Source: Patescibacteria group bacterium (GTDB lineage: Bacteria; Patescibacteriota; Patescibacteriia; UBA2591; UBA4787). Taken from it: a stretch of 64,000 nucleotides of DNA. The translations under genes and the position numbers were made by a program. A model generated the notes under the pieces. That model was not told where the DNA came from. It did no database searches and saw nothing but the letters and a program-made list of their open reading frames with translations. The stretch is from positions 283,150 through 347,149 of the forward strand of contig JAQUSN010000001.1 of NCBI GenBank assembly GCA_028715115.1. The letters run 5' to 3'. Shown in pieces: positions 30,542-49,487 of the stretch. Every line of letters starts with the position of its first letter. Within the stretch, counting starts at the first letter, position 1.

Positions 30542-31207
30542 ATGATTGCGAAATTATTGTCTGCGGTAAATGTCGGGCTTGAAGCGCGCTTAGTTGAAAT
30601 AGAAGTTGACGTCAGCCGCGCTTTCCCGTGTTTTAATATCGTTGGCTTACCGGATAAGGCCGTGGAAGAGGCGAAAGAGCGGGTGCGCGCGGCCATAGAA
30701 AATTCCGGCCTAAAGTTTCCTGGCCAGCGTCGCATTGTTGTTAACTTGGCTCCGGCTGACATAAAAAAAGAAGGCCCAGTTTACGATTTGGCCATCGCCT
30801 TAGGAGTTTTAATCGCTTCTGAACAATTACCGCAAGAAATCCTTAAGCAAGGGATTTTTTTCTTGGGAGAATTAGCGCTTAACGGAGAATTACGGCACAC
30901 GCGCGGCATTTTACCGATGATGATTTTTGCCCGAGAGAAAGCCATCAGTGAAATATATTTGCCCAAAGATAATTTAGCAGAAGCGCAGCTTATTCCCGGA
31001 CTCACTATTTATCCTTTAAATTCTTTAAGCGAATTAATCGGCCATTTAACCAAAGCCAAAACTATTGAGCCAATTATTAGTAGAGGAGTAAAAATAGAGG
31101 CGAGCGATGAATTTGAGGTTGACATGGCTTATATCAAGGGCCAAGAATTTATTAAACGCGCCCTAGAAATCACTGCGGCCGGTGGGCATAATATTTTGGT
31201 GGTATGA
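30542..31207 (+). pseudogene. comM: comM (Mg-chelatase-like YifB), N-terminal fragment truncated by an insertion
   Basis: Lon-like N domain that ends ...AAGGHNILVV-stop, exactly where the ComM Walker A (GPPGTGKT) should follow. The remainder of the gene resumes at 48758. Confidence 0.75.
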
Positions 31208-31392
31208 ACAACATCCCACCAATGGCCTTAGATTTGAGATAGAAGCAACGTTCTAACAATATTGACGAGGTGGTCGTGAATTATAATAAATTAAAAGTTG
31301 GTATCTCAAAATTGTTCTATCCCCCTGAAATCATTGTTTTATTCAAATTTAGTGATAATATAAATTTATAGTAAAATAACTTTATAAATCAT

Positions 31393-32250
31393 ATGAAACG
31401 AAGCTATAAAGATCGGTATAATGATGGTAATGATTTTGCAAACCTTGTTACGGGGATCATAGTTTTTTATCTTCTTTATTTAGTTCTTTTGTGGTTTACC
31501 AATAAAGCTAATTTCTGGCGGTGGTTGTTATACGGTTTTGGTGTTGTTGCTTTATCGTTTATCGGTGTTTTAGTTTGGCGTAGAATGAAAGAGAAAAGAC
31601 GTTTAGCAAAAAGAGATTGGACTGTTAACACTATCAGTCAAGCTGGACTTGAAGAATCTATTAATAATTTTATAGTCCGATTCGGTCTTGGCGAAAGAAG
31701 CAAAAACGCCTGGAGACGAAGAAACTATAACATAGATTGGTATCGTATTCATGATCTTCAGGAGGATCTGGCCAAACAAAATATCAAATTTACACTTACT
31801 GATATGAGCATTCTTTTGTCTCACTATATTAATAAAAGAGAGCATGATGTGACCACAAAAAGCATCAACGCATCTACCATCAACAGCTTTACAAAATTAA
31901 GCAGTTCTGACTTTGAACGACTTTTGGACAGACTCTACCGAGTTATGGGTTACTCTGTGCAATTAAACGGGAGAACCGGAGATCAGGGCGGAGATTTAAT
32001 TGCCACAAAAGGTCAGGAAAGGATACTTATTCAGGCTAAGTGTTATATCAATTCAACCGTAGGCAATAGTGCAGTGCAGCAAGTCGTCGCCGCAAGAAAT
32101 CATTATGATTGCAACAGAGCAGCGGTGGTCACTAGTGGTTATTTTACAAAAGAGGCGGTAGAGTTGGCTAAAACCAATAATGTAGAATTAATACCACGAG
32201 AAATACTTCAAAAAATGCTTTTAGATTATTTACACGAAAGCTGGAATTGA
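31393..32250 (+). CDS. Membrane-anchored Mrr-type restriction endonuclease domain protein
   Basis: Two N-terminal transmembrane helices. The C-terminus matches Mrr_cat (RVMGYSVQLNGRTGDQGGDLIA...ILIQAKCY...VQQV...AAVVTSGYFTKEAVELAKTNNVELI). Confidence 0.6.
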   Translation: MKRSYKDRYNDGNDFANLVTGIIVFYLLYLVLLWFTNKANFWRWLLYGFGVVALSFIGVLVWRRMKEKRRLAKRDWTVNTISQAGLEESINNFIVRFGLGERSKNAWRRRNYNIDWYRIHDLQEDLAKQNIKFTLTDMSILLSHYINKREHDVTTKSINASTINSFTKLSSSDFERLLDRLYRVMGYSVQLNGRTGDQGGDLIATKGQERILIQAKCYINSTVGNSAVQQVVAARNHYDCNRAAVVTSGYFTKEAVELAKTNNVELIPREILQKMLLDYLHESWN

Positions 32251-32318
32251 TTGTAAAGGGACTTCAGTAACAAAGAAGAGCCTTGACGGGGGCTCTTCTT
32301 ATGATATAATATAAATAT

Positions 32319-33128
32319 ATGAGAAAAACATTAATTCTATCGTTTGGATTTTTAGTGATTTTACTTTTTTTATCTGGTTGCACCATTTCCGAGAATAATC
32401 ATAATAGTCAATTAACAAACATTAGCAACGGAGAAGCTCAAGAAACAACAACGAAAACAGAAGAAACAAACAATCCCAGTGTCCAGACAAACAATTCGGT
32501 CCCAGAAATTCAGTTAACCAACAAACTATTTAAAGTAATTAAAGTTGTCGATGGAGACACAATTGATGTTGATTTAGACGGGAAGACAGAAAGACTAAGG
32601 CTTATTGGGATTGATACCCCCGAGACAGTTGATCCGAGGAAAGTCGTTCAGTGCTTTGGAAAAGAGGCATCAGATAAAGCAAAAGAGATTTTAAATGGGA
32701 AAATGGTATCTCTTGAATCCGACAAAACACAGGGAGAAAGAGATAAATATGACAGACTGTTAAGATATGTTTATTTAGAAGACGGAACTATGTTTAATAG
32801 GTATATGATTGCCGAAGGATATGCTCATGAATATACATATCAAAGCAATCCCTATAAATATCAAGCAGAATTTAAAGAGACAGAAAAGCAGGCCAGAGAA
32901 CAGAATAAGGGGCTTTGGGATATTAATACTTGTAATGGAGATACGGCTCAAGCTGCCGATAAAGATCTAAGCAAGATTAATGATGTAGACCAACCGCAAG
33001 TTAAAAAAAGCACCACTGGGATATGTCATGAGAAGGGATCGACATATTATTTAAGAACAACGCATTTTACGCCTTATAACTCTATTGAAGAATGTCTAAA
33101 TAGCGGAGGGAGATTACCCTTAAGATAA
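32319..33128 (+). CDS. Secreted lipoprotein thermonuclease (SNase-like)
   Basis: Lipobox LSGC. SNase motifs KVVDGDTIDV and RLIGIDTPE. The C-terminal 40-aa Cys/His module is shared with the next ORF. Confidence 0.65.
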   Translation: MRKTLILSFGFLVILLFLSGCTISENNHNSQLTNISNGEAQETTTKTEETNNPSVQTNNSVPEIQLTNKLFKVIKVVDGDTIDVDLDGKTERLRLIGIDTPETVDPRKVVQCFGKEASDKAKEILNGKMVSLESDKTQGERDKYDRLLRYVYLEDGTMFNRYMIAEGYAHEYTYQSNPYKYQAEFKETEKQAREQNKGLWDINTCNGDTAQAADKDLSKINDVDQPQVKKSTTGICHEKGSTYYLRTTHFTPYNSIEECLNSGGRLPLR

Positions 33129-33161
33129 TATTTATATAAATAACAGTTAACCATCAAAATT

Positions 33162-33422
33162 ATGAAAAAATGTTTATTAGTCGCCTCGCTATTAATTATT
33201 TTAGTATCCTTAATAGGATGTAGTGCTTCAAATAATAATTATAACCCTACCCCCAATCTTCCTGCCCTTCCTCAATATAATGGAGAACCACAGGTTAAGA
33301 AGAGCACAAGCAACATTTGTCACGAGAGAGGGTCAACCTATTATGATAGAACGAAAAATTTTATTCCTTATAATTCCATTCAAGAATGTTTAAATAGTGG
33401 AGGGAGACTGCCTTTAAAATAA
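33162..33422 (+). CDS. Small secreted lipoprotein carrying the same C-terminal CHExGSTYY...PYNSIxECLNSGGRLP module
   Basis: Lipobox LIGC. Its last 40 aa are about 75% identical to the C-terminus of the 32319-33128 protein. Confidence 0.45.
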   Translation: MKKCLLVASLLIILVSLIGCSASNNNYNPTPNLPALPQYNGEPQVKKSTSNICHERGSTYYDRTKNFIPYNSIQECLNSGGRLPLK

Positions 33423-33555
33423 ACAGGGTCGAATATCGTCCAGTCTCCCACCCCAGAATTTAAAAAAGAGCCTTGATAAAGGGCTCTTCTGGGCATCTTG
33501 ACTTTTAATGGGGAACATGATAGTATTATAAGATAATATATCAATTCAAAAAACT

Positions 33556-34707
33556 ATGAAAAAAATATTCATTGTCGCAATGGTTTTATTCTTTAGTCTT
33601 ATATTGCAAACTTCAAATGTCTATGCTGTACATGTAAATGGATACTATCGAGCTAATGGGACATACGTTAATTCTTATGAACGTACTGCACCAGATAGTA
33701 GCCCGTACAATAACTATGGTTATCCAGGGAACTATAACCCCAATACAGGGAAAATTACTGGGGGCAATGCAGGTACTTATTTAAATAATTATTATAAGAC
33801 TTCATCTGGAAATAGTTACGGTTATCCATCAACATCCTATACTGCTCCGTCTACACCATCTTGTCCATCGAATTCATACTATGATGGCATTGGTTCTTGT
33901 AAGTGTAGCTACGGGTACCTTGTTAGTGGCGGGAGTTGTGTGTCGGCAAATAGCGTGTGTTATGCCCAAACTGGTTATGGTTCAAGCTATGACTCTTTAA
34001 GTAAAAGCTGTAAATGCAACTCAGGGTATATCATAGGGCCTTCTGGTCAATGCATAAGTGCTAGTTTGTATTGTTCCACTCAGTTGGGGTTGATGTCTCA
34101 ATATAACAGCATATCAAAAAAATGTGAGTGCATGGCAGGCTACAAATTTAATGGTTCAAGTTGCGTATATCAATCGCCAAGTTATTCGGTAAAATCATAC
34201 GATTGTCCGCTCAATTCACACATCTCAACCGTTGATCCAACAAAATGTCAGTGCGATTCAGGATATCAGGTTAATTCAATAAAAACTGCGTGTGTGATTA
34301 TTGCAACTCAAAATTTGACCACTCCTATTTCTGGAACTGGTGACTCAGGCATTGGCACTAATTCTGCTTCCCAAGCTTGCTCTTGGGGTTATAAGAAAAA
34401 CCGTGTTAATGGTCAATGTGATAAAGTTGTGGTTCCTTCTAACGCTCATTTCGTTTATTCGGGGGATGACTGGGTTTGTGATAATGGTTATAAACAAATA
34501 GGGAACTATTGTCAATTAATTCAAGTTGGTCAAACTACACCAACATCTGATAATCAGGAGTGCAATTGGGGATATAAGAGGAGTGGTGTTGCTCCTTGTG
34601 AAGTAATAATTTTACCATCACATGCTCATTATACTTATGATGGTCACGACTGGGTTTGTGATAATGGTTATAAGCAAATTAAAGATGCGTGCTATTCTAC
34701 AAAATAA
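33556..34707 (+). CDS. Secreted cysteine-rich repeat protein
   Basis: Signal peptide. Repeated CxCxxGY...G.C modules and a duplicated HAH.Y.GDDWVCDNGYKQI unit. Confidence 0.45.
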   Translation: MKKIFIVAMVLFFSLILQTSNVYAVHVNGYYRANGTYVNSYERTAPDSSPYNNYGYPGNYNPNTGKITGGNAGTYLNNYYKTSSGNSYGYPSTSYTAPSTPSCPSNSYYDGIGSCKCSYGYLVSGGSCVSANSVCYAQTGYGSSYDSLSKSCKCNSGYIIGPSGQCISASLYCSTQLGLMSQYNSISKKCECMAGYKFNGSSCVYQSPSYSVKSYDCPLNSHISTVDPTKCQCDSGYQVNSIKTACVIIATQNLTTPISGTGDSGIGTNSASQACSWGYKKNRVNGQCDKVVVPSNAHFVYSGDDWVCDNGYKQIGNYCQLIQVGQTTPTSDNQECNWGYKRSGVAPCEVIILPSHAHYTYDGHDWVCDNGYKQIKDACYSTK

Positions 34708-34982: not shown

Positions 34983-35618
34983 TTATGTAATCAGGTTAGA
35001 AGTTGTTTTGTTTAAAAGCAAAGAGCTTGATCTTTTAAATAGGACAATAATTATGATTAAAGGTATAACAAATAAAAATACAATAATGCCTATAGTAAAG
35101 ACGCTTTGTCCAAAATGGCTGAGGCCATTAACCCAGTTGGGAGAGAATAGGTTGGGAATAAAATTATATGCTCCGTGAAATAATATTGAAAACAAAAAGC
35201 CCAAGAAGGGCTTATTAAGCAGGATAAAGTATATTAGAATTATAGAGGCTGCAGGATGCACTAAACTTAAGAATCTTAATGGGGTAAATTGAGCACCACC
35301 AGCTAAACAATACATTAAGTGCTCTAAAATAGTAAAAACTATAGAAACTATTAAAATCTGTCCAACCCATTTAACTTTATTTGATTTGCCTGAAAAAAAT
35401 TTGAACCCAAAATATTTTAATAACTCTTCTGTTATAGGAGAATAAAGGAAGAGATAAATAAAAAGACTGAGAGGGGCGCCCCCGGCTATAAAATCAATAA
35501 AGGGTTTATAGATGATTCTAACAGTAAAATATAAGAATCCTGTTAGTAAGAAAGCTAAAATACCTCCCAAAACACCAAGAAATACATCTCGTTTATTTAG
35601 AATACGTAATAGATTCAT
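34983..35618 (-). CDS. CPBP-family intramembrane metalloprotease (CAAX protease/Abi family)
   Basis: EELLKY (motif 1), FxxxEHxxY and HGAYN (motif 3). Multi-transmembrane. Confidence 0.55.
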   Translation of the reverse strand: MNLLRILNKRDVFLGVLGGILAFLLTGFLYFTVRIIYKPFIDFIAGGAPLSLFIYLFLYSPITEELLKYFGFKFFSGKSNKVKWVGQILIVSIVFTILEHLMYCLAGGAQFTPLRFLSLVHPAASIILIYFILLNKPFLGFLFSILFHGAYNFIPNLFSPNWVNGLSHFGQSVFTIGIIVFLFVIPLIIIIVLFKRSSSLLLNKTTSNLIT

Positions 35619-36304
35619 ATAGTAAAGAATAGATCATTGTTTGCAATTCAACAAGCTTTTTGTTAATTTTTATCACTATTATTTAGAGGCAAAGACTCCC
35701 AAAAAACGGGAGTCTTTTTGTCGGAGTAGCAAGCTACTGAAAGAGAAACAAAATTTCGTCGTTTGTTCTACTCTTTGTTCGCTCCCGCAAACGCGGCTCT
35801 TGGTGTGCCCGTAAGCCACCGTTGCTTTTAACCGCACCTTTCACCCATCTCTGGGCAAATCCACCGCACAAAGGCGGATGGCGGACTTATTACAACACTG
35901 TTATCAGCGAAAAGCCGATAAACACCAACTCTCGCTACTCCAATTAGATTATAGCGCTCTTTTGTTTAATGTCATAAAATAAGGCTTGTGCGACCACCAT
36001 TCTCTATTCTACAACTAGCGTTTTGTGGATTTTTATAAATTCTTTCATAAATATTTATATAAAAAGTGGTTCATGGATAAAACTGGTCAAAACGACTACG
36101 AGAAACACTGAATAATGCTTGCTTCACAATGTTTTTCTGAACTTTTATGCAAAAAATGGTTATTAGAAAAACTATGTCAAAATAACCACGTCACTACACA
36201 GGGGCGGATTTACTTTATTTATTACCTACCCCGCCATGCTGCACGCCCTATATTTTTTAAAAAAATAGGGTCGTTCCTCATTGAGTAACGAAAAAAAGTG
36301 AGAA

Positions 36305-36643
36305 TCAATCCTTGACTAAAACCTCCCTGGGGACAGAGCCGTTGGCTGGACCGACGATACCCTCTGCCTCCAAGAGATCCAAAAGATGGGCTGCCCTAGC
36401 ATATCCAACGCGTAGTCGACGCTGGATAAGTGATGCCGAAGCCCTACCAGCTTTAATCACAGCCTCGCGTGCATCTGGCAACAATTCATCGTCAGTTAAA
36501 TCACTAAAATCTCCAGTTTTATCAAAAGAAAATATTTTTTTATTTAATAGCTCAATCCCCTTTCTTAATTTAGCAATCTCTAAAATAAGCCAAACGAAAA
36601 GCCCGAGGGATATTAAAGATACAAGAACAAGCAAGGTAATCAT
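36305..36643 (-). CDS. Small membrane protein: N-terminal transmembrane helix fused to an FtsK gamma (winged-helix) domain
   Basis: ELLPDAREAVIKAGRASASLIQRRLRVGYARAAHLLDLLEAEGIVGPANGSVPREVLV matches the FtsK gamma consensus. It is a shorter paralog of the 37577-38050 protein. Confidence 0.6.
   Translation of the reverse strand: MITLLVLVSLISLGLFVWLILEIAKLRKGIELLNKKIFSFDKTGDFSDLTDDELLPDAREAVIKAGRASASLIQRRLRVGYARAAHLLDLLEAEGIVGPANGSVPREVLVKD
36370..36480. repeat. Direct repeat of about 110 nt (about 88% identity) with 37650-37760, the gamma-domain coding segments
   Basis: ...ccaacgcgtagtcgRcgctggataagYga.gccgaagccctaccagctttaatcacagcctcgcgtgc is present in both. Confidence 0.6.
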
Positions 36644-36681
36644 AAAATATATTATTTAATTTTATTAAAAATATCTCAAAA

Positions 36682-37572
36682 TTATTGGGTCTGATGAGCA
36701 ATCTTATATATATCTTCATCGCTAACAAGGGCCACCCGAAACTTAATAGGTCCTTTTTCGCCAATATAAGGGTTGGTCAACAGGGCTTCGTATCCTAACT
36801 CCAGTTTTTCTGCTCCTCCATAATCAAAGATAAACTCTGTGTCTTCTTTACTAATAGTAGCAAAGCAAATTTTAGTTGTAAAATTTACCCGAAGAAGAAT
36901 AGGTAAAACCTCTTCTTTAAAATACCAGGCATTGATAATTAACCGAATATTAACGCACCTGCCCAGCTGAAGTATTCTAATTAAGTTTTTCTCTATTGCT
37001 TTTGCCGTTTTCGCATCCTCTAACATAAATTTTGCCATCTCATCTATAATTAAGAATAAGTGGGGCATTTCAAAAGATTTTTCATTATTATATTTATCAG
37101 CAGTACGCATTCTCGCTTCTCGCAAAATATCATATCTTCTATCTAATTCTTTTACTGTTTCATCGGTGGCCTTAAGTAATTCTTCGGCATTTCTCAAAAA
37201 CGGCCCCTTTAAGTATGAAGACTCTGAGAAAAAAGCATAATCAATATAAGACGAATCGGCAATCACAAACTGAAGTTCTTTGGGGGTGAATTTCTTTATC
37301 AAACTAACCATAATAGCGTTAGTATATTCGTTGGTGGGAGAATTAACGTTTCCGCCTATTATTAAATGTGGAAGGTCTTTGAGGTCTAAAAATAGATATT
37401 TCTTATTGGTTACCATCCACAATAGATTAGAAAGCGAGAATCTCTTGCCGACCCTTACTCCCAGCGGAACCACTAAGTTTTTCTTGTCTGCTCCAAATTC
37501 CTTATGTTTCCATAAGTCCTTTGCTAAGGCTGGCTTCCCCTTAAACCTTAATTCTTTGCGAGGATAAATCAT
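36682..37572 (-). CDS. FtsK/SpoIIIE motor-domain homolog with a degenerate P-loop (probable pseudo-ATPase)
   Basis: Aligns with the FtsK beta domain. Where FtsK has PHLLIAGTTGSGKS, this protein has PHLIIGGNVNSPTN, so the Walker A Lys/Ser is lost. Walker B is kept (LFLIIDEMAKFM), as is ELDRRYDIL. There is no transmembrane region and no gamma domain. Confidence 0.6.
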   Translation of the reverse strand: MIYPRKELRFKGKPALAKDLWKHKEFGADKKNLVVPLGVRVGKRFSLSNLLWMVTNKKYLFLDLKDLPHLIIGGNVNSPTNEYTNAIMVSLIKKFTPKELQFVIADSSYIDYAFFSESSYLKGPFLRNAEELLKATDETVKELDRRYDILREARMRTADKYNNEKSFEMPHLFLIIDEMAKFMLEDAKTAKAIEKNLIRILQLGRCVNIRLIINAWYFKEEVLPILLRVNFTTKICFATISKEDTEFIFDYGGAEKLELGYEALLTNPYIGEKGPIKFRVALVSDEDIYKIAHQTQ

Positions 37573-37576
37573 GGGG

Positions 37577-38050
37577 TTATAAAATTTTAATTACTTCTTT
37601 AGTTATAATCTCTCTTGGTTCGGCGCCATCGCCTGGGCCAATCGTACCCTCTGCCTCTAAAAAATCCAAAAGCGCGGCTGCTCTGGCATAACCAACGCGT
37701 AGTCGGCGCTGGATAAGCGAAGCCGAAGCCCTACCAGCTTTAATCACAGCCTCGCGTGCTTTTGGTAATAATTCTTTATCAGTCAAATCAACAAATCCTT
37801 CACCATCAGCTATTCTTCTTAATTGCCCAACTTCATTTCTTATTTGAAAAATTGAGGCCGAGACGTTGTTGCTGCTTATAAGATATTCTCTGACATCTTC
37901 ATAAATTTTATTAAGAATATCGGGGTTTTCTTGGGGAAATAATTTTTTATTTAACGAATCAAGTCCTTTTCTTAATTTAACAACCTCTAAGATAAACCAA
38001 ATGAAAAGACCGATGGACACTATGGATAATAAGACTAAAAATGTGATCAT
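37577..38050 (-). CDS. Membrane protein: N-terminal transmembrane helix, linker, then an FtsK gamma domain
   Basis: ELLPKAREAVIKAGRASASLIQRRLRVGYARAAALLDFLEAEGTIGPGDGAEPREII. The gamma-domain DNA is about 88% identical to 36370-36480. Confidence 0.6.
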   Translation of the reverse strand: MITFLVLLSIVSIGLFIWFILEVVKLRKGLDSLNKKLFPQENPDILNKIYEDVREYLISSNNVSASIFQIRNEVGQLRRIADGEGFVDLTDKELLPKAREAVIKAGRASASLIQRRLRVGYARAAALLDFLEAEGTIGPGDGAEPREIITKEVIKIL

Positions 38051-38103: not shown

Positions 38104-38619
38104 TTATTTTGAGATTTCACATTTTCCAAATGATACTAAAGTCATTGTACCTAGTGTTGCGACGTCAACAAATTCTCCCTTATTACCTAGAATGTCTCCA
38201 GTGGCAACCTTAAACAACATCGCTTGACCTTGCGATGGAACAAATTGTGTAAATTCTCCTGACAGATTTACCTTGACTGGATAAGGGTCACATCCTTTGG
38301 CATCACATCTAAAATATGTTCCGCTTTCGGTACCATAATCTACAAAATAATATGTTGCTGGAGCGTCGGGTTTACATCCATCCATATCACAGTTATATCT
38401 AATAGTTGGAAAACATGAGAGTTCAGCTATGTCTGCCATTGCAGAATGTTGCGCAGATTCATCAAAAGATGTTTTTAATTCTTGACTCGGTGAAATTATA
38501 TCGGAACTGGGGGAATTTGTTATTTCCTTTCCCGTCTTAACAAGCTCTTTATTGAAAAACAAAAAATAAAAAGAGACACCCAATGCAATAACGAGCATAA
38601 AAATAATAAAATTTTTCAT
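38104..38619 (-). CDS. Secreted/membrane-anchored hypothetical protein
   Basis: N-terminal transmembrane/signal segment and Cys pairs. First gene of a minus-strand operon of exported proteins. Confidence 0.35.
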   Translation of the reverse strand: MKNFIIFMLVIALGVSFYFLFFNKELVKTGKEITNSPSSDIISPSQELKTSFDESAQHSAMADIAELSCFPTIRYNCDMDGCKPDAPATYYFVDYGTESGTYFRCDAKGCDPYPVKVNLSGEFTQFVPSQGQAMLFKVATGDILGNKGEFVDVATLGTMTLVSFGKCEISK

Positions 38620-38623
38620 AAAA

Positions 38624-38917
38624 TTATCTTTCGTAAATTACCCTTCTTGCACGAAAACAATAATCAATGCATTCTTCTTTATTGGGAAAATATTTAATTC
38701 CCATCATAACGCCAGCATCAGTATATCCTAAAAAATAACCCCAGGATTTGTCTGTTGGTTCATATTCACAATAAAGATCAGTGCATAAGCGTTTACGAAA
38801 ATTATTAGCTTGAATTTTAGGCTCTATTTTTAATTCAAAAAAGACATAACTTCCAATTATTAGAGCAATAACAAAAATAATCCAACCAACAAAATTTTTA
38901 TTATTTTTGTTTTCCAT
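38624..38917 (-). CDS. Small membrane-anchored hypothetical protein
   Basis: N-terminal transmembrane helix; Cys-containing. Confidence 0.3.
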   Translation of the reverse strand: MENKNNKNFVGWIIFVIALIIGSYVFFELKIEPKIQANNFRKRLCTDLYCEYEPTDKSWGYFLGYTDAGVMMGIKYFPNKEECIDYCFRARRVIYER

Positions 38918-38926
38918 AAATTATCT

Positions 38927-39358: not shown

Positions 39359-39363
39359 ATATT

Positions 39364-39585
39364 TTATTCTTTTAAACCAAACCTATGAAGGCAAGTTTTA
39401 TAATAAGCATCTATAAACCGTAGCGCTTCCATGTCATCAATTTTAAGAATTGCCGTTTGGTTAAATTCTGCTTCAGCTAAACATACTGACCTTATCTGTC
39501 TTGGTTTATATTCATACCAATAAAAAGCAAAACCTAAAATTAAAATTAAAGTTACAAAAATGAGAAAGTATTTTTTCATAAACAA
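39364..39585 (-). CDS. Small membrane-anchored hypothetical protein
   Basis: N-terminal transmembrane helix. Confidence 0.3.
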   Translation of the reverse strand: MFMKKYFLIFVTLILILGFAFYWYEYKPRQIRSVCLAEAEFNQTAILKIDDMEALRFIDAYYKTCLHRFGLKE

Positions 39586-39674
39586 TTATTTAAGAGGTAA
39601 TCTTCCACCACTATTTAAACCATCCTCAATAGGTTTTTGAGCAATGTTTTTAAACAAGTCCGTTAAACAAGCAT

Positions 39675-41744: not shown

Positions 41745-42062
41745 AGATTTTGTTGCTTAATTTTTTTGTTAAATTTGCTGGCGAAAATACAAAACCCGCC
41801 GCCAAGCGAGACTTGCGCCTCCTATACCCTTTCGGATATAGACCACGTGTATGGAGCCTGAACGACGGGTTCAGTCAGTATACACGTGGCTTTATTGCCA
41901 TGCCCACAGAGATTCCATGGGTTTAGGCAACTTAATTGTTGATTTTATAATAACATAAAGAAATAAAAAGGGTAGCCCAGTGAATAAATTGTGTAAATTT
42001 TCGGCTTCGTTTAGCTTGACAAATGTAAAAAATGCTATAAAATATAATAAACAAGGTCCAAA

Positions 42063-43031
42063 TTGGACCCTAAAATTAAAATAACAATGAATATGGATGT
42101 CCACGATAGAAAATTTATAGAAAGTCACAATAGCTTATGCACTGATCCAACACGCAAAATTAATGAGAAAATTTTGCGTTGTTTTAAAAAAAATTTATCG
42201 ATTAAAAAACCGACGATTAAAAAGCATCGTGATAAATTAGTTAACTGGATAACCTCTACTACATACCAAAAAGACTTAAACCTAAAAATATTGAGGAATA
42301 ACTTTGAATATTTTAACTACAAAACAAACATCATCTTTTCAGACAAAAAAATAAATAAACCGGGAGTATTTTATTTAGGAAGAAGCTCAACTCAAAGAAT
42401 CTATTGGCAAGCAATTTATAGCAAGCATTATTTTACAAAAAGAATGTTATTAGATGATTTTTTAAAACTTGATTTAGAATATAACAAAAACGATCAAAAA
42501 GAAGGAAGGAATTTAAATAAAATTAAAAATTTTATAGAACAATATAGTGTTTGCTTTATTAACTACCAAAACTTATTTAACTATCAAGATGGACTAGAGA
42601 CTTATTTCGATGTTTTAATTAAAAATTATTTATTTTTTAAAAATTTTTACAAATTATTATTAGAAGATAAAAAATTTCCTTACAAAATAAAAGAGCCAGC
42701 CTTAAAAAGTAAGCATTATTGGCATTGGTATAATAAATATGCAAGATTATTATTCGCCCTTAATGAAGAAAAAATTTTTATCAAGAATGATTGTTTCCTT
42801 CCCCTTAAATGTATAATTAAAGAACCCAAAACCAACATTCCCTTGATAACCGATGAATTCCCATATCTTATAAACCTACTTTATGGTTTCATAATACAAG
42901 AACGAGCTGGACTGGAGAGATGTGGGTATTGTAAGGTATTGTTTGTGAAACGAAGAAAAGACCAAAAAGGATGTTGCCCAAATCATTCAAAATCATTAAG
43001 AGATGAGAAATATAGAGAGAAAATGGCTTAA
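42063..43031 (+). CDS. Hypothetical Lys/Asn-rich protein with a C-terminal Cys cluster (CGYCK...CCPNH)
   Basis: Very AT-rich gene. The likely start is the ATG at 42087/42093. The promoter is TTGACA-16-TAAAAT at 42016-42043. The palindrome GGTCCAAATTGGACC overlaps the start region. Confidence 0.35.
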   Translation: MDPKIKITMNMDVHDRKFIESHNSLCTDPTRKINEKILRCFKKNLSIKKPTIKKHRDKLVNWITSTTYQKDLNLKILRNNFEYFNYKTNIIFSDKKINKPGVFYLGRSSTQRIYWQAIYSKHYFTKRMLLDDFLKLDLEYNKNDQKEGRNLNKIKNFIEQYSVCFINYQNLFNYQDGLETYFDVLIKNYLFFKNFYKLLLEDKKFPYKIKEPALKSKHYWHWYNKYARLLFALNEEKIFIKNDCFLPLKCIIKEPKTNIPLITDEFPYLINLLYGFIIQERAGLERCGYCKVLFVKRRKDQKGCCPNHSKSLRDEKYREKMA

Positions 43032-43155
43032 ATAAAGCAAAAGATTCGATATTAAAACGTCGCTTTGAGCGGCGTTTTTATGTTAATTATTAATTACTTT
43101 ATAATTATAATAATGTTGTATTTTGAAAAATTAAAAGTTATAAAAATTAGAATTT

Positions 43156-43422
43156 ATGAAGCGAGAAATATCAAAACAAAATGATTTTTTTGAAAGTTCA
43201 GATTTAACAATTTGCACCACTCTCTGTTATTTTGGTTATCAAATAGAAACCATTAGCAGACAAATATCGTCTAAGGTTATCTTTTCGATTAAAAAAGATG
43301 AAAAATTAGACGAATTGATTCAAAAATATTGGGCCCATCAACTCTTAGTAGAGCCGATGGCCTTTTTTAATTGTTTAAAAGAAATTAAATCGAGAATTTA
43401 TAGTAGTTTACCGAATAATTAA
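43156..43422 (+). CDS. Hypothetical small protein
   Basis: 88-aa ORF with no recognisable motif. Confidence 0.25.
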   Translation: MKREISKQNDFFESSDLTICTTLCYFGYQIETISRQISSKVIFSIKKDEKLDELIQKYWAHQLLVEPMAFFNCLKEIKSRIYSSLPNN

Positions 43423-43602
43423 TTTTTCACCCCGATGAATCTAAAACAGTCAAACAACAAAAAGAACGACATCGAAATTGAGATAATTTATAATTCTCCG
43501 AAAGAGGGAGCGGATTGTTTATTATCTAAGGCCATAGAGATGATCTTGCCAGAAGAGACTATAAAACAATATTTAAATAATAAAGAATAACATATAAAAA
43601 TT

Positions 43603-44235
43603 ATGAATATGAAATATGCGGAAACCTTGAACAATTTATATCTTTCTAATTTAGAGAAAGAATGGCAGAAATCGTCAATAAGGTATTCAGAAAGACAATG
43701 GGTGGGGGTGTTTCCAGAAGCAAAAGAAATTATTAGAGAAATCATCAAAGGCTTTGAAAAAGAAGAGCAGGAGATTTTAAGCACGATCCAAGAAAACTTA
43801 ACTTTAATTAGAAGTCAAATATCTGGTATATCTCTGTATTTTTGGAGAGAGTGGGTTAAATGTAGCCAGGTTTCGCGGTTAATAGAGATTGAAAAAAAAA
43901 TAGCTGGGCTAAGGGCGGCCATTTCGGAGGGCAAAGCTTTTAAGGGCGAGAAGAACCATAGAATCAATGACGAAGATATTTATCAGGCCCTGCAAACATC
44001 AATAATTGACGTAGCTATTCCTTCTTTAAATCAAGCCAGACAACTCGGAGAAAACTATCTTTCTCTTTGCCCGTTTCACAAGGAAAATCACCCCTCCTTT
44101 TATTTATATGCTTTAACTAATTCTTTTTATTGTTTCGGCTGCGGAGTCGGTGGAAATGTTATTAATTTGGTAATGAAATTGCACAATCTCCCATTTAAGG
44201 AGGCGGTGCGGTTTCTATTAAGAGGACAATTATGA
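43603..44235 (+). CDS. Protein with a C-terminal CHC2 (DnaG-type) primase zinc finger
   Basis: LCPFHKENHPSFYLY...FYCFGCGVGGNVINLVM matches zf-CHC2. No TOPRIM domain is present. Confidence 0.5.
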   Translation: MNMKYAETLNNLYLSNLEKEWQKSSIRYSERQWVGVFPEAKEIIREIIKGFEKEEQEILSTIQENLTLIRSQISGISLYFWREWVKCSQVSRLIEIEKKIAGLRAAISEGKAFKGEKNHRINDEDIYQALQTSIIDVAIPSLNQARQLGENYLSLCPFHKENHPSFYLYALTNSFYCFGCGVGGNVINLVMKLHNLPFKEAVRFLLRGQL

Positions 44236-45599
44236 ATATTAAAATGCCAAGCGAACAAGCGCTTGAACAAAAAATTCAGGAAGTTGAGAAAACGGTTCAG
44301 GAGGTTGAGAGGGATGTCGTTGAGAGGGTTTTGCCAATAGAATTTAAAGGTCAATCGGTAGGAATTGACGAATGGCGAAAAACTATACAAGCCAACTTTC
44401 CTGAGTTGTTTTTCCCCGCAGAAGTGGGTCTAAGCGTTATTGCTCAATTATTAATCAAAGACATAAGCAATCCCTTCGGGATGGTTTATGTCGATGTACC
44501 AAGCTCGGGGAAAACCATAACTTTAAACTTTTTTACTGAGGTTGAAGAATTGGTTTATGCAACAGATAATTTTACTCCCGCTTCTTTTGTCTCCCATGCT
44601 AGCAATGTTAAAAGGGAAGACTTAAAGAAAATTGATCTTCTGCCCAAAATACGTTATAAACTTCTAATTGTTCGTGATTTGGCTCCAATTTTTGGTGCAG
44701 GAGAAGAAGACTTACAAAAGAATTTAAGTACCCTAACCAGAGTATTTGACGGCGAGGGGTTGCAAACTGACAGCGGTATCCACGGTCAGAGAGGATATTG
44801 CGGAGATTATGTGTTTATGTTTTTAGCCGCCTCTACTCCAATTTCTCCTAAAGTGTGGAAGGCAATGAGCAGCTTCGGTTCTCGGCTTTTCTTTTTAAAT
44901 ATGGAAACGAAAGAAAAGGACGACGATACTCTGGCCCAGCAGCTAACTCACAACTCTTGTAAAGAAAAAGAAACAGTCTGCCGAGAAAAAACGGGACATT
45001 TTATTAGAACTCTTTGGCATAAATATTCTGACGGGGTTGATTGGAATAAGGGCAATGACTCTCAAGAATTAAAAAAGATGATTGGCAAAATAGCAAAATT
45101 ATTAGCTAAATTAAGAGGGACGATTAAAGTTTGGGAGAAAAGCAATTTAAGAGATGATGAAAATTTTGACCATCAAATTCCAATAATTGAAAAACCAGAC
45201 CGGATTAACCAGTGTCTTTATAACTTGGCTCGCGGACACGCCTTGGTTTGCGGTAGAGAACAAATTGACGAAAGAGATGTTGCGGTAGCCCTGGAAGTGG
45301 CACTTGATTCTGCCATATCATCAAGGGTCCAGTTGTTTAATGCCCTGTTGGACAATAACGGACAACTAACGACCGATGAAGCTATGGATAGAATTAACTG
45401 CTCTAGGGTTACGGCCCTTAAAGAAATGGAGGCGTTTAAAATACTGGGGTTGGTTGATTTGAAGAATGAAGTTATGGGTATTGGCCGCCCGGAATATGTC
45501 ATAACACTAAAAGAGAAATTTAAGTGGTTTTTAAGTGGAGAATGTAAGAACATAAGAGAGCCAAAGGTCGCAGACACAGGGGTAGATTTACTAAATTAA
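44232..45599 (+). CDS. P-loop NTPase, possible primase-associated or replicative helicase-like protein
   Basis: Walker A-like VDVPSSGKT and Walker B-like KLLIVRD. Translationally coupled to the zf-CHC2 protein (4-nt overlap). Confidence 0.35.
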   Translation: MNIKMPSEQALEQKIQEVEKTVQEVERDVVERVLPIEFKGQSVGIDEWRKTIQANFPELFFPAEVGLSVIAQLLIKDISNPFGMVYVDVPSSGKTITLNFFTEVEELVYATDNFTPASFVSHASNVKREDLKKIDLLPKIRYKLLIVRDLAPIFGAGEEDLQKNLSTLTRVFDGEGLQTDSGIHGQRGYCGDYVFMFLAASTPISPKVWKAMSSFGSRLFFLNMETKEKDDDTLAQQLTHNSCKEKETVCREKTGHFIRTLWHKYSDGVDWNKGNDSQELKKMIGKIAKLLAKLRGTIKVWEKSNLRDDENFDHQIPIIEKPDRINQCLYNLARGHALVCGREQIDERDVAVALEVALDSAISSRVQLFNALLDNNGQLTTDEAMDRINCSRVTALKEMEAFKILGLVDLKNEVMGIGRPEYVITLKEKFKWFLSGECKNIREPKVADTGVDLLN

Positions 45600-45625
45600 T
45601 TAATAAATAAAGTAAATTTACCCCT

Positions 45626-45937
45626 ATGTATACAGAACAACAAATCATTGAAAATCTTAAAAAGTGTCCTTATTTCAATAGATGCTCTCAGAATCTATGT
45701 CCCTTGGACCTGGAACTTCACCTGAGAACAGGCAATAAACAGGATAAATGTCGCTGGATGAGAGAACCCAAGCAAGCAAGGGTCGAAGGTAAAGAGTTCA
45801 TCTCTGGAGGAGGGGTTATGCCGAATGTCCTTTTGAATTTCGTGCCTGAAGCGAATTTAGAGTGGCTCAACCAATCGTCTCAAGAAGCTTGTCGACGGCT
45901 TATTGACCCTGATTCTCACCTGGTATCAGGTAAATAA
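45626..45937 (+). CDS. Hypothetical small Cys-containing protein
   Basis: 103 aa, with CPYFNRCSQNLCP. Confidence 0.25.
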   Translation: MYTEQQIIENLKKCPYFNRCSQNLCPLDLELHLRTGNKQDKCRWMREPKQARVEGKEFISGGGVMPNVLLNFVPEANLEWLNQSSQEACRRLIDPDSHLVSGK

Positions 45938-45957
45938 CAGGTAATAATAATTAAAAT

Positions 45958-46626
45958 ATGACGAATCAACAAGATAACGAATTAAGTAAAATCGAAGAAG
46001 GCACCAAGCCTGTAGTTAAAAAAGAGCTTACGCCAACAGAAATTGATAATTTGAAAAAGTTTTTTTCAGACCCACATACCAGTGAGGAACAACGACTGAA
46101 GGAATACGATGGATTACGAAAAACGAGGCAAAGATCAAAGGAACAAGAAGATAGGAAAGAAAAATTGAGCATGGAGCTTGCAATAATTCACGGATTTGAT
46201 AACGGAATTCTACTTCAGAGTATTGTCGGTGATAAAAGGTGTGGACCAGGACTTATAAAAATGAGACGGGGTTTAATAGAAGAACATCGATGCAAGGCCG
46301 CCTCGGAGTTTATGTTGGTAGATAAAATCGTTACAGCCTACTGGAAAAGTATGCGATACGAGACATTCCTTAATAGGATTATTGAACCAGAGCTAGACAA
46401 ATTTATATTCAAAGAATCCCAAATAAAAATAATTAAAGAAATCCAGAAAGGTATAGAACTAGCTAATCGACAATTTGAAACAAGTCTAACCCTACTTAAA
46501 AGTCTGAAGCAGCCCAAACTAAACGTGAAGGTAAGCGCCGATAATGCCTACATCGCCCAGAACCAGCAAGTTATTAATACAGACGAGATTAATCCTTCTC
46601 CCAAAGAAATCATTAAGGCCAATTGA
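45958..46626 (+). CDS. Hypothetical charged protein
   Basis: 222-aa Lys/Glu-rich sequence. Confidence 0.25.
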   Translation: MTNQQDNELSKIEEGTKPVVKKELTPTEIDNLKKFFSDPHTSEEQRLKEYDGLRKTRQRSKEQEDRKEKLSMELAIIHGFDNGILLQSIVGDKRCGPGLIKMRRGLIEEHRCKAASEFMLVDKIVTAYWKSMRYETFLNRIIEPELDKFIFKESQIKIIKEIQKGIELANRQFETSLTLLKSLKQPKLNVKVSADNAYIAQNQQVINTDEINPSPKEIIKAN

Positions 46627-46641
46627 TTTGGGAACATTTTT

Positions 46642-46932
46642 ATGAAAACTTTAATTGAGCATTGTCAAAAATTAAACATTAACGAACTGGTAAGAAGCAT
46701 TAAGTCAGAGTTAAAAAAGGTTAAACTGCAAGCAAAAATTGATGCCCTGGGGCAGAGAATTGATATAACGACTACGCCCTGCCATTTTGGAAATGAAAGG
46801 ATTTGGTTTGTATGCCCATCCTGTAAAAAGCGAGTGGCCACGCTATATAAACCACCAATGAAAAACGCCCTATTATGCCGAAAATGCCATGATTTGACCT
46901 ATCTAAAGGCACGCTATCACCGAATGGTATAA
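46642..46932 (+). CDS. Hypothetical zinc-ribbon protein
   Basis: CPSCKK...CRKCH, a four-Cys ribbon. Confidence 0.3.
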   Translation: MKTLIEHCQKLNINELVRSIKSELKKVKLQAKIDALGQRIDITTTPCHFGNERIWFVCPSCKKRVATLYKPPMKNALLCRKCHDLTYLKARYHRMV

Positions 46933-47111
46933 ACTTGACTGGATATACCAGGGTGTTATAATAATAACGTTGACCCATGTCCCAAAACATCCCTAAGATT
47001 TTTATTGCCCTGTTGCCCTCAAGGGGGCGGCTATGCCAATGAGGCAATCCTTAGGGAAAGCGGATTTGGGTCAACCATGGCCGCCCCTTTAATTTGTTTA
47101 TAAAAAATTAT

Positions 47112-48758
47112 ATGAAAGTAGCTATTTATGCTCGGGTTTCTACAGAGCACCAACAAGAGCAAAAAACAATTGAATCCCAGGTAGACGAGTTAAGAAGAAT
47201 TTGTAATAAACAAGGAGTCTATATTGTTAGAGAGTATGTAGACAACGGTTGGAGTGGCGAGACCCTGGATCGACCAGAATTGGATAGGCTAAGAACCGAG
47301 GCCTCCCAAGGAATTTTTGAACGAGTTTATTTTTATTGCAACGATAGATTATCCAGGAATCTCTCTAATCAAGGGATTATAGTTCAAGAGTTGGAAAGAA
47401 AGGGTATTGAGGTCTATTTCTATGACAAACCAATAGCCGACACTCCCGAAGGCAGATTTTTATTTCAAATATTGGGAGCTGCGTCAGAGTTTGAGAAGGC
47501 GAAGATTTTAGAACGGACAAGAAGGGGGAAGCTTTATAAAGCAAGAAGAGGGGTGGTGGTTGGGAGCTTGTCGCCATTGGGATTTGAATATATCAAAAAA
47601 ACGAAGGAGAAAGACGGATATTATATAATAAATAAGTCAGAGGCTGAGATTATTAATCTAGTTTTTGATTTATATCTACAATTTGGCAGCGTCAGAGAAG
47701 TGGCCAAAGCATTAACAAATAGAAATGTTAAGCCCAAGAAAGGGAGACATTGGCGTACTAGCACTTTACATAGAATTTTAAGAAACGAGACTTATATTGG
47801 CACCACTTATTTTAATAAATCTTATGCCATTGAAACAAGCACGGTAAAACAAAAATATAGAAAGATAGTTAAAACTGGTAGAAAAATGAGAGATAAAAAA
47901 GACTGGATTCCGATTGCCGTTTCTCCGATAATTGAAAAATCAAAATTTAATGCAGTACAGGTGTTATTGGCAAAAAATCATAGGGCCTTTGTATCTGGAG
48001 GCAATCATTATTTATTGGGTGGATTATTGAAATGCGCTATCTGTGATTCGCCCGTGGGAGGAGAATTAAGCCATGGCCATAGATTTTATCGGTGTAATAA
48101 TAGGCACCGGACATTTCCATTACCAAAGAAATGTAATGCTAAAATGATTGGTGTCGATAAATTAGACCCCGCCGTTTGGGAGTCTGTTACTAGGGCGATA
48201 ATGGATCCTCGCATATTGGTTAAATATATATTAGATAAGACAGAAAAGATTAAAAAGAACGCGGGGTCTTTAAATACAGAGATAGAATCATTACGTCAAG
48301 AAAAGAACAAGGTCAAGGCCAAAAAAGATAATCTATTTGACTTATATGCCGACAGTGGCATTAACAAAGAATCAATTTTAGAGAAAATAAGAAATTATGA
48401 GAAGCAAGAAGAGAACCTAGATAAAAGAATAGCAGATCTAAGTCTTCAGCTAACTCAGAGGGTTGATAGGCCATTACTTATTCAAGATGTTGAATATTTC
48501 TGCGAAGTGGCCCAAGGGAAAATAAAAGACTTCTCTCTTGAAGAGAGGCGCAGGTTCTTAACGTATCTTATAAACAAAATAACCGTTGACTCTATTAAAA
48601 AGAAGGTTATAATAACAGGATATATTCCTTTAACTCAGGCTCAAGAGGGGCCAACGAATTTGACAGAAGTTCTTTCAAATCAATATAATAGGTTGGGCGG
48701 TTATGTTTGTGGTTCTCCGTCTCAACCTTATGGTGGTGTGTTGTCCCCACAGTGTTGA
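47112..48758 (+). CDS. Large serine recombinase (serine integrase)
   Basis: N-terminal resolvase domain MKVAIYARVSTEHQ (catalytic Ser), then a recombinase domain and a zinc-ribbon/coiled-coil region, about 550 aa. It sits at the junction of the element with comM. The ORF-track start at 47094 is also possible. Confidence 0.8.
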   Translation: MKVAIYARVSTEHQQEQKTIESQVDELRRICNKQGVYIVREYVDNGWSGETLDRPELDRLRTEASQGIFERVYFYCNDRLSRNLSNQGIIVQELERKGIEVYFYDKPIADTPEGRFLFQILGAASEFEKAKILERTRRGKLYKARRGVVVGSLSPLGFEYIKKTKEKDGYYIINKSEAEIINLVFDLYLQFGSVREVAKALTNRNVKPKKGRHWRTSTLHRILRNETYIGTTYFNKSYAIETSTVKQKYRKIVKTGRKMRDKKDWIPIAVSPIIEKSKFNAVQVLLAKNHRAFVSGGNHYLLGGLLKCAICDSPVGGELSHGHRFYRCNNRHRTFPLPKKCNAKMIGVDKLDPAVWESVTRAIMDPRILVKYILDKTEKIKKNAGSLNTEIESLRQEKNKVKAKKDNLFDLYADSGINKESILEKIRNYEKQEENLDKRIADLSLQLTQRVDRPLLIQDVEYFCEVAQGKIKDFSLEERRRFLTYLINKITVDSIKKKVIITGYIPLTQAQEGPTNLTEVLSNQYNRLGGYVCGSPSQPYGGVLSPQC

Positions 48759-49458
48759 TGAGCGGGCCGCCTGGTTCGGGAAAAACTTTTTTAGCTCGCG
48801 CCTTACCGTCAATTTTGCCGATTATGACGGAGCAAGAAGTCTTGGAAGTGACGAAAATTTATAGCATCGGTGGATTATTAAAAGAAAATCAACCCTATAT
48901 TAGCGAACGACCTTTTCGCGCGCCAAAGGCCACATTACTTATCCGGCTAAATTTACCCTGGTTGCCTCGCAGAATCCTTGCCCGTGCGGTTATTTTGGCG
49001 ATCCCGAAAAAGACTGCACATGTAGTCCAATTCAAATAATGCGCTATCGCAAGAAAATTTCCGGCCCGCTTTTAGATAGAATCGATTTGCACGTTGAAGT
49101 GCCAAGAATAAAATTCGAAAAATTATCGAGTGAAGAAGCGGCTGAGCCGTCTAAAAATATCAGGACTCGAGTGCAGGTGGCGAGGGAAAGGCAGTTAAAA
49201 AGATTTGAAGGACTTAAGATTTTAACTAACGCCGAAATGTCAGCCCAGCAATTAAAAACATTTTGTCCAGTTGATGCGACTGGCCAGGATTTATTACGTC
49301 GGGCCGTTGACGAATATCACTTGTCTGCCCGTACTTATCATCGTATTTTAAAAGTGGCGCGCACCATTGCAGATTTGGCCGGCGAAGAAAAAATTTTACC
49401 ACAATACTTAGCCGAAGCCATTCAATATCGGATCAAGGAAGAAGAAAAAATATTCTAA
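48758..49458 (+). pseudogene. comM: comM, middle and C-terminal fragments, with an internal deletion of about 70 codons and a frameshift
   Basis: Frame A (48758-48930) reads MSGPPGSGKTFLARALP...RPFRAP. Frame B (48904-49458) reads HITYPAKFTLVASQNPCPCGYFGDP...ISGPLLDRIDLHVEV...YHRILKVARTIADL. The segment between RPFR.P and ITYPA (Walker B and sensor) is missing. Confidence 0.7.
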
Positions 49459-49487
49459 AAAAAGACCGCCGCGGGGCGGTCTACGAT

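Follow-up and report, generated by a model that had tools for sequence, protein, structure and literature searches.

Insertion of mobile DNA into comM (yifB) by large serine recombinases (LSRs) is established: 12.4% of predicted site-specific LSRs have this gene family as their target, and no other is reported more often (PMC10083194). The elements described there carry the LSR at one end, sit within the coding sequence with gene fragments on their flanks, and use quasi-palindromic attP and attB sites with a 2-bp core. We analysed a 64-kb stretch of a contig whose host is labelled ‘Patescibacteria group bacterium’ at NCBI (the whole stretch is called the window, and coordinates are those of the window unless a locus is named), in which an island of 17,559 bp lies between two pieces of comM. 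The island shares all of these features and is a further example of an LSR insertion into comM, with unusual details: its host is an uncultivated Patescibacteria bacterium, and its cargo and MCM-like backbone are not described in that work.

Other described systems resemble the island in part. In Wolbachia, sr1WO prophages integrate through an LSR in the magnesium chelatase gene, of the same family, and pieces of the gene flank them (PMC9203015). The WO recombinase is the best match to the island’s LSR among 50,697 GenBank phage records, but the identity is low (30% over 90%), and WO, as a complete tailed prophage, has the structural modules that the island lacks. In staphylococcal cassette chromosome (SCC) elements, LSRs occur together with an MCM-like helicase, and replication is thought to follow excision (PMC7581432). 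During transformation, the ComM protein itself works as a hexameric branch-migration helicase (bioRxiv 10.1101/147660, PMC6158740). Disruptions of comM by mobile elements are documented, and so, separately, are mobile elements whose DNases block transformation (PMC12378983, PMC4774983, PMC11441513). As in the island, comM is interrupted by AbaR/Tn6019-type and other elements in Acinetobacter, Vibrio, Aggregatibacter and further bacteria, for which the proposed benefit is less transformation-mediated curing, and some mobile elements add DNases against incoming DNA (PMC11441513, PMC12378983, PMC4774983).

The two comM pieces belong to one gene, interrupted at its Walker A motif, as a sequence-only reading of this DNA had claimed. 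The 5′ fragment (30542–31207, + strand, 221 aa) ends ...AAGGHNILVV-TGA, the final two codons and the stop being element-derived, and by Pfam it comprises the ChlI domain and positions 1–27 of the Mg_chelatase profile. The 3′ remnant (48758–49458, + strand) opens with MSGPPGSGKT at the ATG at 48758 and corresponds to the Mg_chelatase profile from its position 27 on, with its coding sequence spread over two frames (48758–49039 and 49039–49458). The split point is at the codons directly before the Walker A motif. The joined fragments, queried against 5.8 billion proteins, align with intact 512-aa Patescibacteria ComM/YifB proteins without a gap across AAGGHNIL/MSGPPGSGKT (the slash marks the joint), with 89% identity to the best of them, P0121, whose residues 1–219 correspond to the 5′ fragment. 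At the DNA level, positions 106–784 of the orthologous locus L009 align with 30522–31197, and its positions 783–952 with 48755–48924. Together the fragments make up one ComM, and the relatives with intact comM, in DNA (L009) and protein, define attB.

Comparison of the two junctions with this orthologue places the exchange to the base pair. The left junction, attL, reads CAT AAT ATT TTG/GTG GTA TGA ACAAC..., the right junction, attR, reads ...CCCCACAG TG TTG/ATG AGC GGG, and the orthologous attB reads CAT AAT ATT TTA ATG AGC GGA. All that attL and attR have in common is TTG, the codon for Leu219 (31196–31198 and 48755–48757, + strand), and the crossover would lie at the first two bases of this codon (TT; 31196–31197 in attL and 48755–48756 in attR), just upstream of the Walker A codons. 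At each end a 15-nt half-site derived from attP lies 10 nt from the core: TTGGTGGGATGTTGT on the − strand at 31208–31222, and ATGGTGGTGTGTTGT on the + strand at 48730–48744. Searching the window for ATGGTGGTGTGTTGT with up to three mismatches returned just these two positions, for a chance expectation of 0.78 matches anywhere in the window. The imperfect terminal inverted repeats noticed in the sequence-only reading are therefore real, being the sole two matches and equidistant from the core. A further inverted repeat noticed near the left end, TTGAGATA (31234–31241) with TATCTCAA (31302–31309), is present as well, and nothing shows it to be more than a chance occurrence.

Rebuilt from the two ends, attP is an imperfect dyad of ∼52 bp, in which a 15-nt half-site, 10 nt, the TT core and another 10 nt are followed by the inverted 15-nt half-site, and no target duplication is present. 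The best dyad centre is the TT of the Leu219 codon, and its position in comM is the same for each of four independent elements (the one in the window and those at L015, L018 and L027). A half-site, 10 nt, a 2-bp core, 10 nt and a half-site, with no target duplication, is the typical layout of a serine integrase attP; AbaR islands, on the other hand, enter comM by Tn7-like transposition with target duplication and not by serine recombination. The predicted attP is CCTTATGGTGGTGTGTTGTCCCCACAGTGTTGGTGGTATGAACAACATCCCACCAATGG and the predicted attB GGTGGGCATAATATTTTGATGAGCGGGCCGCCTGG, with the junction strings ...CCCCACAGTGTTGGTGGTATGAAC... and ...CATAATATTTTGATGAGCGGG..., respectively. In the proposed mechanism, attP would recombine with attB (...CAT AAT ATT TTG ATG AGC GGG CCG CC...) by conservative site-specific recombination, catalysed by the element’s own LSR, and the host would lose ComM through the insertion. 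A tandem or nested double insertion was considered and is ruled out, as no internal att-like site, second attB or internal comM piece was found in the window.

The LSR gene (47112–48758, + strand) closes the right end of the island. Counted from the ATG at 47112, where homologues also start (consensus MKKVAIYARVS), its product has 548 aa, or 554 aa from an upstream TTG. The protein has a Resolvase catalytic domain (PF00239, E 6e-35, residues 9–154), followed by Recombinase (PF07508, E 2.3e-21) and Zn_ribbon_recom (PF13408, E 5.6e-9) domains, so that the domain content given to it in the sequence-only reading holds, as does the overlap of its stop codon with the comM ATG. The serine nucleophile, S10, and R8 are invariant catalytic residues in a 28-sequence LSR alignment, and residues 10–449 align with the structures of SPbeta SprA/YokA. 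The reading frame passes through the attP-derived arm of attR, and its TGA (48756–48758) shares its A with the ATG of the comM remnant. Read through the circular form, the frame extends 19 further codons, to ...SPQC-WWYEQHPTNGLRFEIEATF and a stop; integration would cut these 19 codons off and place the stop codon on the remnant’s ATG. Inside the 3′ end of the gene there is also a 12/12 match to the sigma70 consensus (TTGACA-18-TATAAT, 48660–48689, + strand), directed outward to the comM remnant and 69 nt before its ATG. We rejected this promoter as a driver of truncated ComM: it is not conserved in six relatives, and the remnant is frameshifted.

Homologues of the LSR number in the hundreds. 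Scanning metagenomes with just the one LSR protein returned no relatives, and an alignment of 28 sequences was then used as the query; with it, 240 loci were fetched from GTDB genomes, JGI metagenomes and IMG/VR, more were added by exact-protein look-ups, and all were scanned with intact ComM. Related recombinases occupy the same comM site in other genomes: comM is broken at amino acids 216–223 beside the LSR in L002–4 (LSR 60% identical to that of the window), L252/L254 (59%), L258 (53%), L015, L017, L018, L020, L024, L026, L027 and L042, which together span 37–60% LSR identity. No fetched locus with an LSR of ≤36% identity shows comM adjacency. Among the 2.9 million IMG/VR contigs the best LSR match is 37% identical, and no IMG/VR relative adjoins comM. 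Where a label is given, the metagenome-assembled genomes (MAGs) carrying comM-inserted relatives are named Patescibacteria, Roizmanbacteria, Omnitrophota or Gammaproteobacteria. Both ends were captured for three of the relatives, L015 (∼11.1 kb), L018 (6.4 kb) and L027 (10.5 kb), and in these the best dyad centre of the rebuilt attP falls on TT or CT, again the first two bases of the Leu codon.

Insertion polarity has flipped among close relatives, since in L252 (10001–12257), L254, L017, L024 and L026 (LSR 38–59% identical) the 3′ end of the LSR gene abuts the 5′ fragment of comM, on the opposite strand. The gene also offers this LSR clade a second, different target site: at L011 (9995–13074, a Nealsonbacteria MAG), the reading frame of a 49%-identical LSR enters comM at about codon 30, leaving Walker A intact. 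Because the N- and C-terminal fragments join seamlessly, the LSR is intact, the rebuilt attP is dyad-symmetric, and relatives of the LSR clade split comM at the same codons, the sequence evidence supports an interpretation of the island as a non-phage integrative element placed in comM by an LSR.

Ahead of the LSR gene lies a structured region that we read as a leader RNA. It is served by a sigma70-type promoter (46935–46962, + strand; TTGACT-16-TATAAT, 11/12 matches with a TG extension), and the predicted leader (46966–47101, + strand) consists of helices P1, P1b, P2 and P3 and a long-range helix, GGGGCGGC/GCCGCCCC, followed by a U-run. The sequence-only reading had described a long hairpin here; its arms, GGGGCGGC/GCCGCCCC and GTTGACCC/GGGTCAAC, are present at 46969–47088, but belong to a conserved multi-helix fold. 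The 136-nt region folds better than 200 of 200 shuffled sequences (z −2.6). Using nhmmer, we found a copy directly upstream of the LSR gene in L014 (6612–6740; E 6e-14; a Saccharibacteria MAG, LSR 44% identical), and a weaker one ∼330 nt upstream of the LSR gene in L045 (4325–4453; also a Saccharibacteria MAG, LSR 34% identical); covariance-model matches lie upstream of the LSR genes in the same two loci, both of which keep the TATAAT of the promoter. L045 does not adjoin comM, so the leader travels beyond the comM-targeting group of LSRs.

Helices P1, P1b, P2 and P3 are nested and show compensatory changes. Across the three sequences, 100% of cells are paired and 10 of the 23 pairs are changed on both sides, against 0–1 such pairs in slid controls, the counts being made on a model-fitted alignment that leans towards structure. 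The fifth, long-range helix joins the apical loop of P3 to the 3′ tail, ahead of the U-run, and read from the sequences it covaries as well, the 5′ and 3′ arms being GGGGCGGC and GCCGCCCC in the window, GGGGCGTC and GACGCCCC in L014, and GGGCGGTTC and GAACCGTCC in L045. Because G-U pairs occur on the + strand, an RNA is favoured over a DNA cruciform. Rfam searches gave no family overlapping the leader when scored against the gathering threshold, and none on 46850–47200 with E values up to 10. A covariance model (R1) found the three copies in ∼1.4 Mb of fetched loci, and an exact-pattern scan of IMG/VR returned no match; either the motif is rare or the sampled loci are too few. The leader probably gates LSR expression as an attenuator-type element, in which the long-range GC helix and U-run resemble a terminator, one that may compete with the P1–P3 fold or be pseudoknotted with it.

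At the position of the leader, L258 has instead a 62-aa HTH_17 (excisionase-like) gene (L258 9810–9998), directly before its 53%-identical LSR. It is a candidate recombination directionality factor (RDF), and the island in the window has no counterpart of it.

The comM remnant carries a second lesion. Compared with intact ComM it lacks 60 residues (HHT...VLFLDE...SRAR, including the Walker B motif VLFLDE) and is frameshifted. After the 783–952 block, the alignment with L009 resumes at L009 1120–1668, corresponding to 48914–49459, so that 178 nt are missing from the window, with the joint at 48914–48924. In L009 the missing segment is flanked by an 11-nt direct repeat, TTTC(G/A)CGCGCC, and by this signature the loss reads as a microhomology-mediated deletion. 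The deletion shifts the frame, which is why the remnant appears as two open reading frames (ORFs), and it would have arisen later than the insertion. As excision cannot undo a 178-nt frameshifting deletion, the loss of comM has become permanent in this genome.

This lesion raises the possibility that the island was inserted by its LSR long ago and is now a fixed, immobile fossil, kept for its cargo or by drift. A frameshifting deletion is what would be expected once selection to restore comM by excision had lapsed. The insertion is found in every recovered assembly of the organism, the 5.8 billion proteins hold no intact comM allele with more than 89% identity, and no RDF/Xis-like gene was recognised, although L258 has one. 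Set against this are a full-length LSR reading frame with its catalytic residues, att half-sites and core that are intact and symmetric, and a promoter and leader that are likewise intact and conserved; the deletion itself lies ∼160 nt outside attR and has no effect on excision. Immobility is, in our assessment, a possibility to be taken seriously that nevertheless falls short of being probable.

The right-hand 6.7 kb of the island form a conserved backbone of DUF5659, a CHC2 zinc finger, an MCM-like helicase that has a C-terminal winged helix, three small proteins, the leader and the LSR. The backbone begins with genes for a 322-aa protein and a DUF5659 protein (42063–43422, + strand; DUF5659 E 2.5e-7, a domain found also in L258, L092, L069 and L059). 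These are followed by a 210-aa protein with a CHC2 (DnaG-type) zinc finger (43603–44235, + strand; Zn_ribbon_DnaG E 5.7e-21), which has no Toprim domain and which PHROG primase families match in the zinc finger part alone. The next gene (44232–45599, + strand) encodes a 455-aa AAA+ ATPase, for which a fold search returned MCM helicases (16.5), SCCmec Cch (5dgk; 14.0), SaPI Rep (8tch; 12.7) and the SaPI5 primase-helicase (7ola; 9.6), with winged-helix folds at its C-terminus. Homologues of this ATPase are often fused to Toprim or PrimPol domains. Three genes for proteins of 103, 222 and 96 aa, the last a Zn-ribbon protein, complete the set (45626–46932, + strand); homologues of the 222-aa and 96-aa proteins occur in L015, L017 and L069. 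What the sequence-only reading had called a pair of primase-type zinc finger and P-loop proteins is confirmed for the CHC2 finger and refined, by fold search, to an MCM-like helicase for its partner.

Gene order in the backbone is shared with relatives. In L258 it runs DUF5659, CHC2 zinc finger, a ∼470-aa protein, then 96 aa, 223 aa and 109 aa (matched to the three small proteins of the window by position alone), the HTH_17 gene, the LSR and the comM fragment; in L015 it runs CHC2, helicase, 225 aa and 127 aa, with SNase and then the LSR further on. On the basis of the fold matches, the helicase and zinc finger form a predicted replication module of the SCC/SaPI-like architectural class, and the excised circle probably replicates with the MCM-like helicase, as proposed for SCCmec and SaPI. 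As in SCC elements, an MCM-like initiator helicase with a C-terminal DNA-binding domain is encoded near a serine recombinase. The two differ in that SCCmec targets rlmH (orfX), encodes one or two Ccr recombinases of another clade, and has a polymerase-type primase or SSB as partner, as opposed to the CHC2 finger here (PMC7581432). No Ccr was among the best structure or sequence matches, and a search of PDB sequences with the helicase profile gave marginal winged-helix matches only, with no sequence-level homology to SCCmec. The element, inserted in comM, is SCC-like in architecture but is not a member of the SCC family.

The left-hand 10.7 kb hold variable cargo, chiefly secreted or membrane proteins and nucleases. 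A membrane-anchored Mrr-type nuclease (31393–32250, + strand; Mrr_cat E 6.6e-28) is followed by a lipoprotein-type secreted SNase, or thermonuclease (32319–33128, + strand; SNase E 3.3e-27), and by an 86-aa lipoprotein and a 383-aa Cys-rich secreted protein (33162–34707, + strand) with sub-threshold EGF/TIL-like Pfam matches only. The last ∼45 residues of the SNase (32980–33128; ...QVKKSTTGICHEKGSTYYLRTTHFTPYNSIEECLNSGGRLPLR) recur as the C-terminus of the 86-aa lipoprotein (33285–33422), as a small Cys/His module. On the − strand lie a polytopic membrane protein (34983–35618), an FtsK-like triad (36305–38050) of FtsK_gamma (112 aa), FtsK motor (296 aa) and FtsK_gamma (157 aa) by Pfam, and a cluster (38104–41744) in which a 689-aa S1 (Trypsin_2) protease with SH3_3 is accompanied by four small proteins of secreted or membrane type. 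The FtsK-like motor has a dead Walker A motif, GNVNSPTN, where Pseudomonas aeruginosa FtsK (2iuu) has GTTGSGKS. This cargo list largely agrees with that of the sequence-only reading: Pfam and alignment bear out Mrr_cat, SNase, the triad with its dead motor, Trypsin_2 with SH3_3, and CHC2, but the supposed CPBP protease is the polytopic membrane protein, which is weakly PrsW/CPBP-like (PrsW-protease E 0.003, below the cut-off).

Several smaller features lie within the cargo. The membrane-anchored, winged-helix FtsK-gamma proteins (36305–36643 and 37577–38050, − strand) are paralogues, with 3′ halves ∼81–85% identical in DNA. Between the PrsW-like and FtsK-gamma genes, ∼690 nt (35620–36300) contain no ORF of more than 57 aa; this stretch includes a promoter-like site on the − strand (35975–35948), and may be what is left of a gene, or else a non-coding RNA. 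A LOOT RNA (41808–41929, − strand; RF03000, full-length match 1–121, 81 bits against a gathering threshold of 46.4), an orphan Rfam motif on mobile DNA, lies just upstream of the S1-protease/SH3 gene (39675–41744, − strand). FtsK-like matches in L063, L066 and L072 (Saccharibacteria) were set aside as shared cargo, as they look like host ftsK with motor and gamma adjacent. A defence island was also dropped, since PADLOC gave domain-level matches only (Mrr nuclease, SNase, FtsK-like, zinc finger) and no complete system.

Each of the three other complete elements (L015, L018 and L027) contains an SNase homologue. Counted over loci that are non-independent and unequal in flank coverage, SNase occurs at 3 of 9 comM-associated loci and at 0 of ∼232 LSR loci not associated with comM (Fisher p ∼4e-5). 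As a secreted protein that recurs in these elements, SNase may raise a second barrier against incoming DNA, or may serve nucleotide scavenging. Such a ‘double lock’, of comM split and SNase export, is a reasonable hypothesis; a nutritional role is equally possible because bacteria of the candidate phyla radiation (CPR) may scavenge nucleotides from DNA.

The contrast between the two halves suggests another reading, in which a ∼6.7-kb LSR backbone has acquired, or lies beside, a separate 10.7-kb block of host-type genes, and the island is mobile DNA only in part. The right-hand module alone is common to relatives, the complete relatives measure only 6.4–11 kb, and the left block is host-like, with its FtsK-like triad and its protease cluster with LOOT RNA. 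However, the comM fragments flank all 17.56 kb with no att-like site or comM piece between them, and the SNase, which is family-typical cargo, stands at the far left. Sitting between attL and attR, the whole interval would excise as one unit. We consider a composite origin doubtful.

Neither Pfam searches of 19 predicted cargo proteins nor PHROGs searches of ten proteins, seven of them belonging to the right-hand module, detected a capsid, portal, terminase, head-morphogenesis or tail family, or any relaxase or type IV secretion system (T4SS) family; ORFs of 97, 143 and 73 aa at 38624–39585, and a 51-aa gene called by others at ∼43435–43590, lie outside these scans. The scanned proteins bear out the sequence-only reading that the cargo is not phage-like, with no capsid or terminase. 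They do not describe a tailed prophage, nor, with no relaxase or T4SS families and an FtsK-like protein that lacks the Walker A lysine, an integrative and conjugative or mobilisable element. As there are no capsid or conjugation genes, transfer of the circle must use other means, such as a helper phage, transformation or vesicles.

Dependence on a helper is what a phage satellite or a much-reduced prophage would show. Phage-inducible chromosomal islands (PICIs) use tyrosine integrases and encode packaging-redirection genes (terS, cpm, ppi) and a master repressor. The island resembles such satellites in combining an integrase with a primase-finger/helicase module, with SaPI Rep among the structural matches of the latter, and relatives range in size over the satellite range, at 6–18 kb; among GenBank phages, Wolbachia phage WO has the nearest LSR, and its sr1WO variants are reported to integrate in the same gene family (PMC9203015). 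Unlike in SaPI and other PICIs, terS, cpm, ppi and a master repressor were not recognised in the element, and no packaging-hijack genes of the PICI type were recognised by Pfam or PHROGs, several backbone proteins being unannotated. The scanned proteins include neither large nor small terminase, the close LSR clade is essentially absent from the IMG/VR contigs, and the cargo is mostly secreted and membrane proteins, which makes helper-dependent packaging improbable.

A break within the LSR gene in GCA_028686935.1 (contig end at 48310, next start at 48345) might hint that assembly or binning joined unrelated contigs inside comM, or might come from strain variation, coverage or a repeat. A chimera is very unlikely, because Logan contigs from three runs read through both junctions, L005 (SRR22315506) matching 41816–51595 at 100% identity through the 48310–48345 break, the right junction and the deletion, and L090 (SRR22315507) and L091 (SRR22315508) spanning the left junction with gyrA, an SBP gene, the 5′ fragment of comM, Mrr and SNase; in addition, the LSR reading frame is unbroken, with homology to relatives along 98% of the protein, and the same LSR-comM junction occurs in relatives.

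Taken with the replication and leader proposals, site-specific insertion into comM driven by the LSR is the explanation in which we place high confidence. The following points weigh against it. For this species, no excised circle, attP junction or empty attB was seen, and the nearest intact ComM is only 89% identical and comes from a different organism. Pfam recognised no RDF in the window; neither Pfam nor PHROGs recognised a catalytic primase domain (Toprim, AEP), and no convincing iterons or tandem repeats were found as an origin. The leader is known from three sequences, with covariation counted on an alignment fitted to the model, and the SNase enrichment carries the dependence among loci given above. 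Finally, the decayed state of the comM remnant points to a long residence of the island, and perhaps to its immobilisation.

Elsewhere in the window, positions 1001–3000 have a GC content of 0.53, against ∼0.39 for the genome, and contain ORFs of 186, 251 and 124 aa beside tRNA genes (733–919); this segment may have been acquired.

Related comM-inserted elements already sit, unremarked, in public MAGs labelled CPR, Omnitrophota and Gammaproteobacteria. No paper was returned by a full-text literature search that combined comM, Patescibacteria and recombinase, and for this reason the CPR setting, the backbone and the leader appear undescribed. The novelty suggested in the sequence-only reading, for a CPR-type genome with this cargo, was overstated, as comM is the commonest LSR target and relatives occur in many public MAGs. 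A much broader proposal would make the island one of an undescribed family, common across CPR and Omnitrophota, of SCC-like islands that excise and replicate, that combine an LSR with an MCM-like helicase, that in at least some members place the integrase under a new class of leader RNA (attenuator- or riboswitch-like, with a pseudoknotted long-range terminator helix), and that suppress transformation twice, by splitting comM and by exporting SNase. We regard this proposal as unlikely in its entirety; if true, the double suppression would be of particular consequence in CPR bacteria, for which a dependence on taking up DNA is supposed.

Current understanding is not overturned by any of these points, and the interest of the locus lies in what it adds. 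Beyond the staphylococci, it exemplifies the SCC-type coupling of a serine recombinase to an MCM-like helicase, and the leader preceding integrase genes is a candidate for a new cis-regulatory RNA. With attL, attR and attB resolved to the base pair and a predicted 52-bp attP, the integrase and its sites are a candidate pair for genetic tools in CPR-like bacteria. Little is known of mobile elements in CPR/Patescibacteria, a host group thought to rely heavily on DNA uptake, and the island offers a test case for mobile elements that disable transformation through the loss of comM and, possibly, through an exported nuclease.

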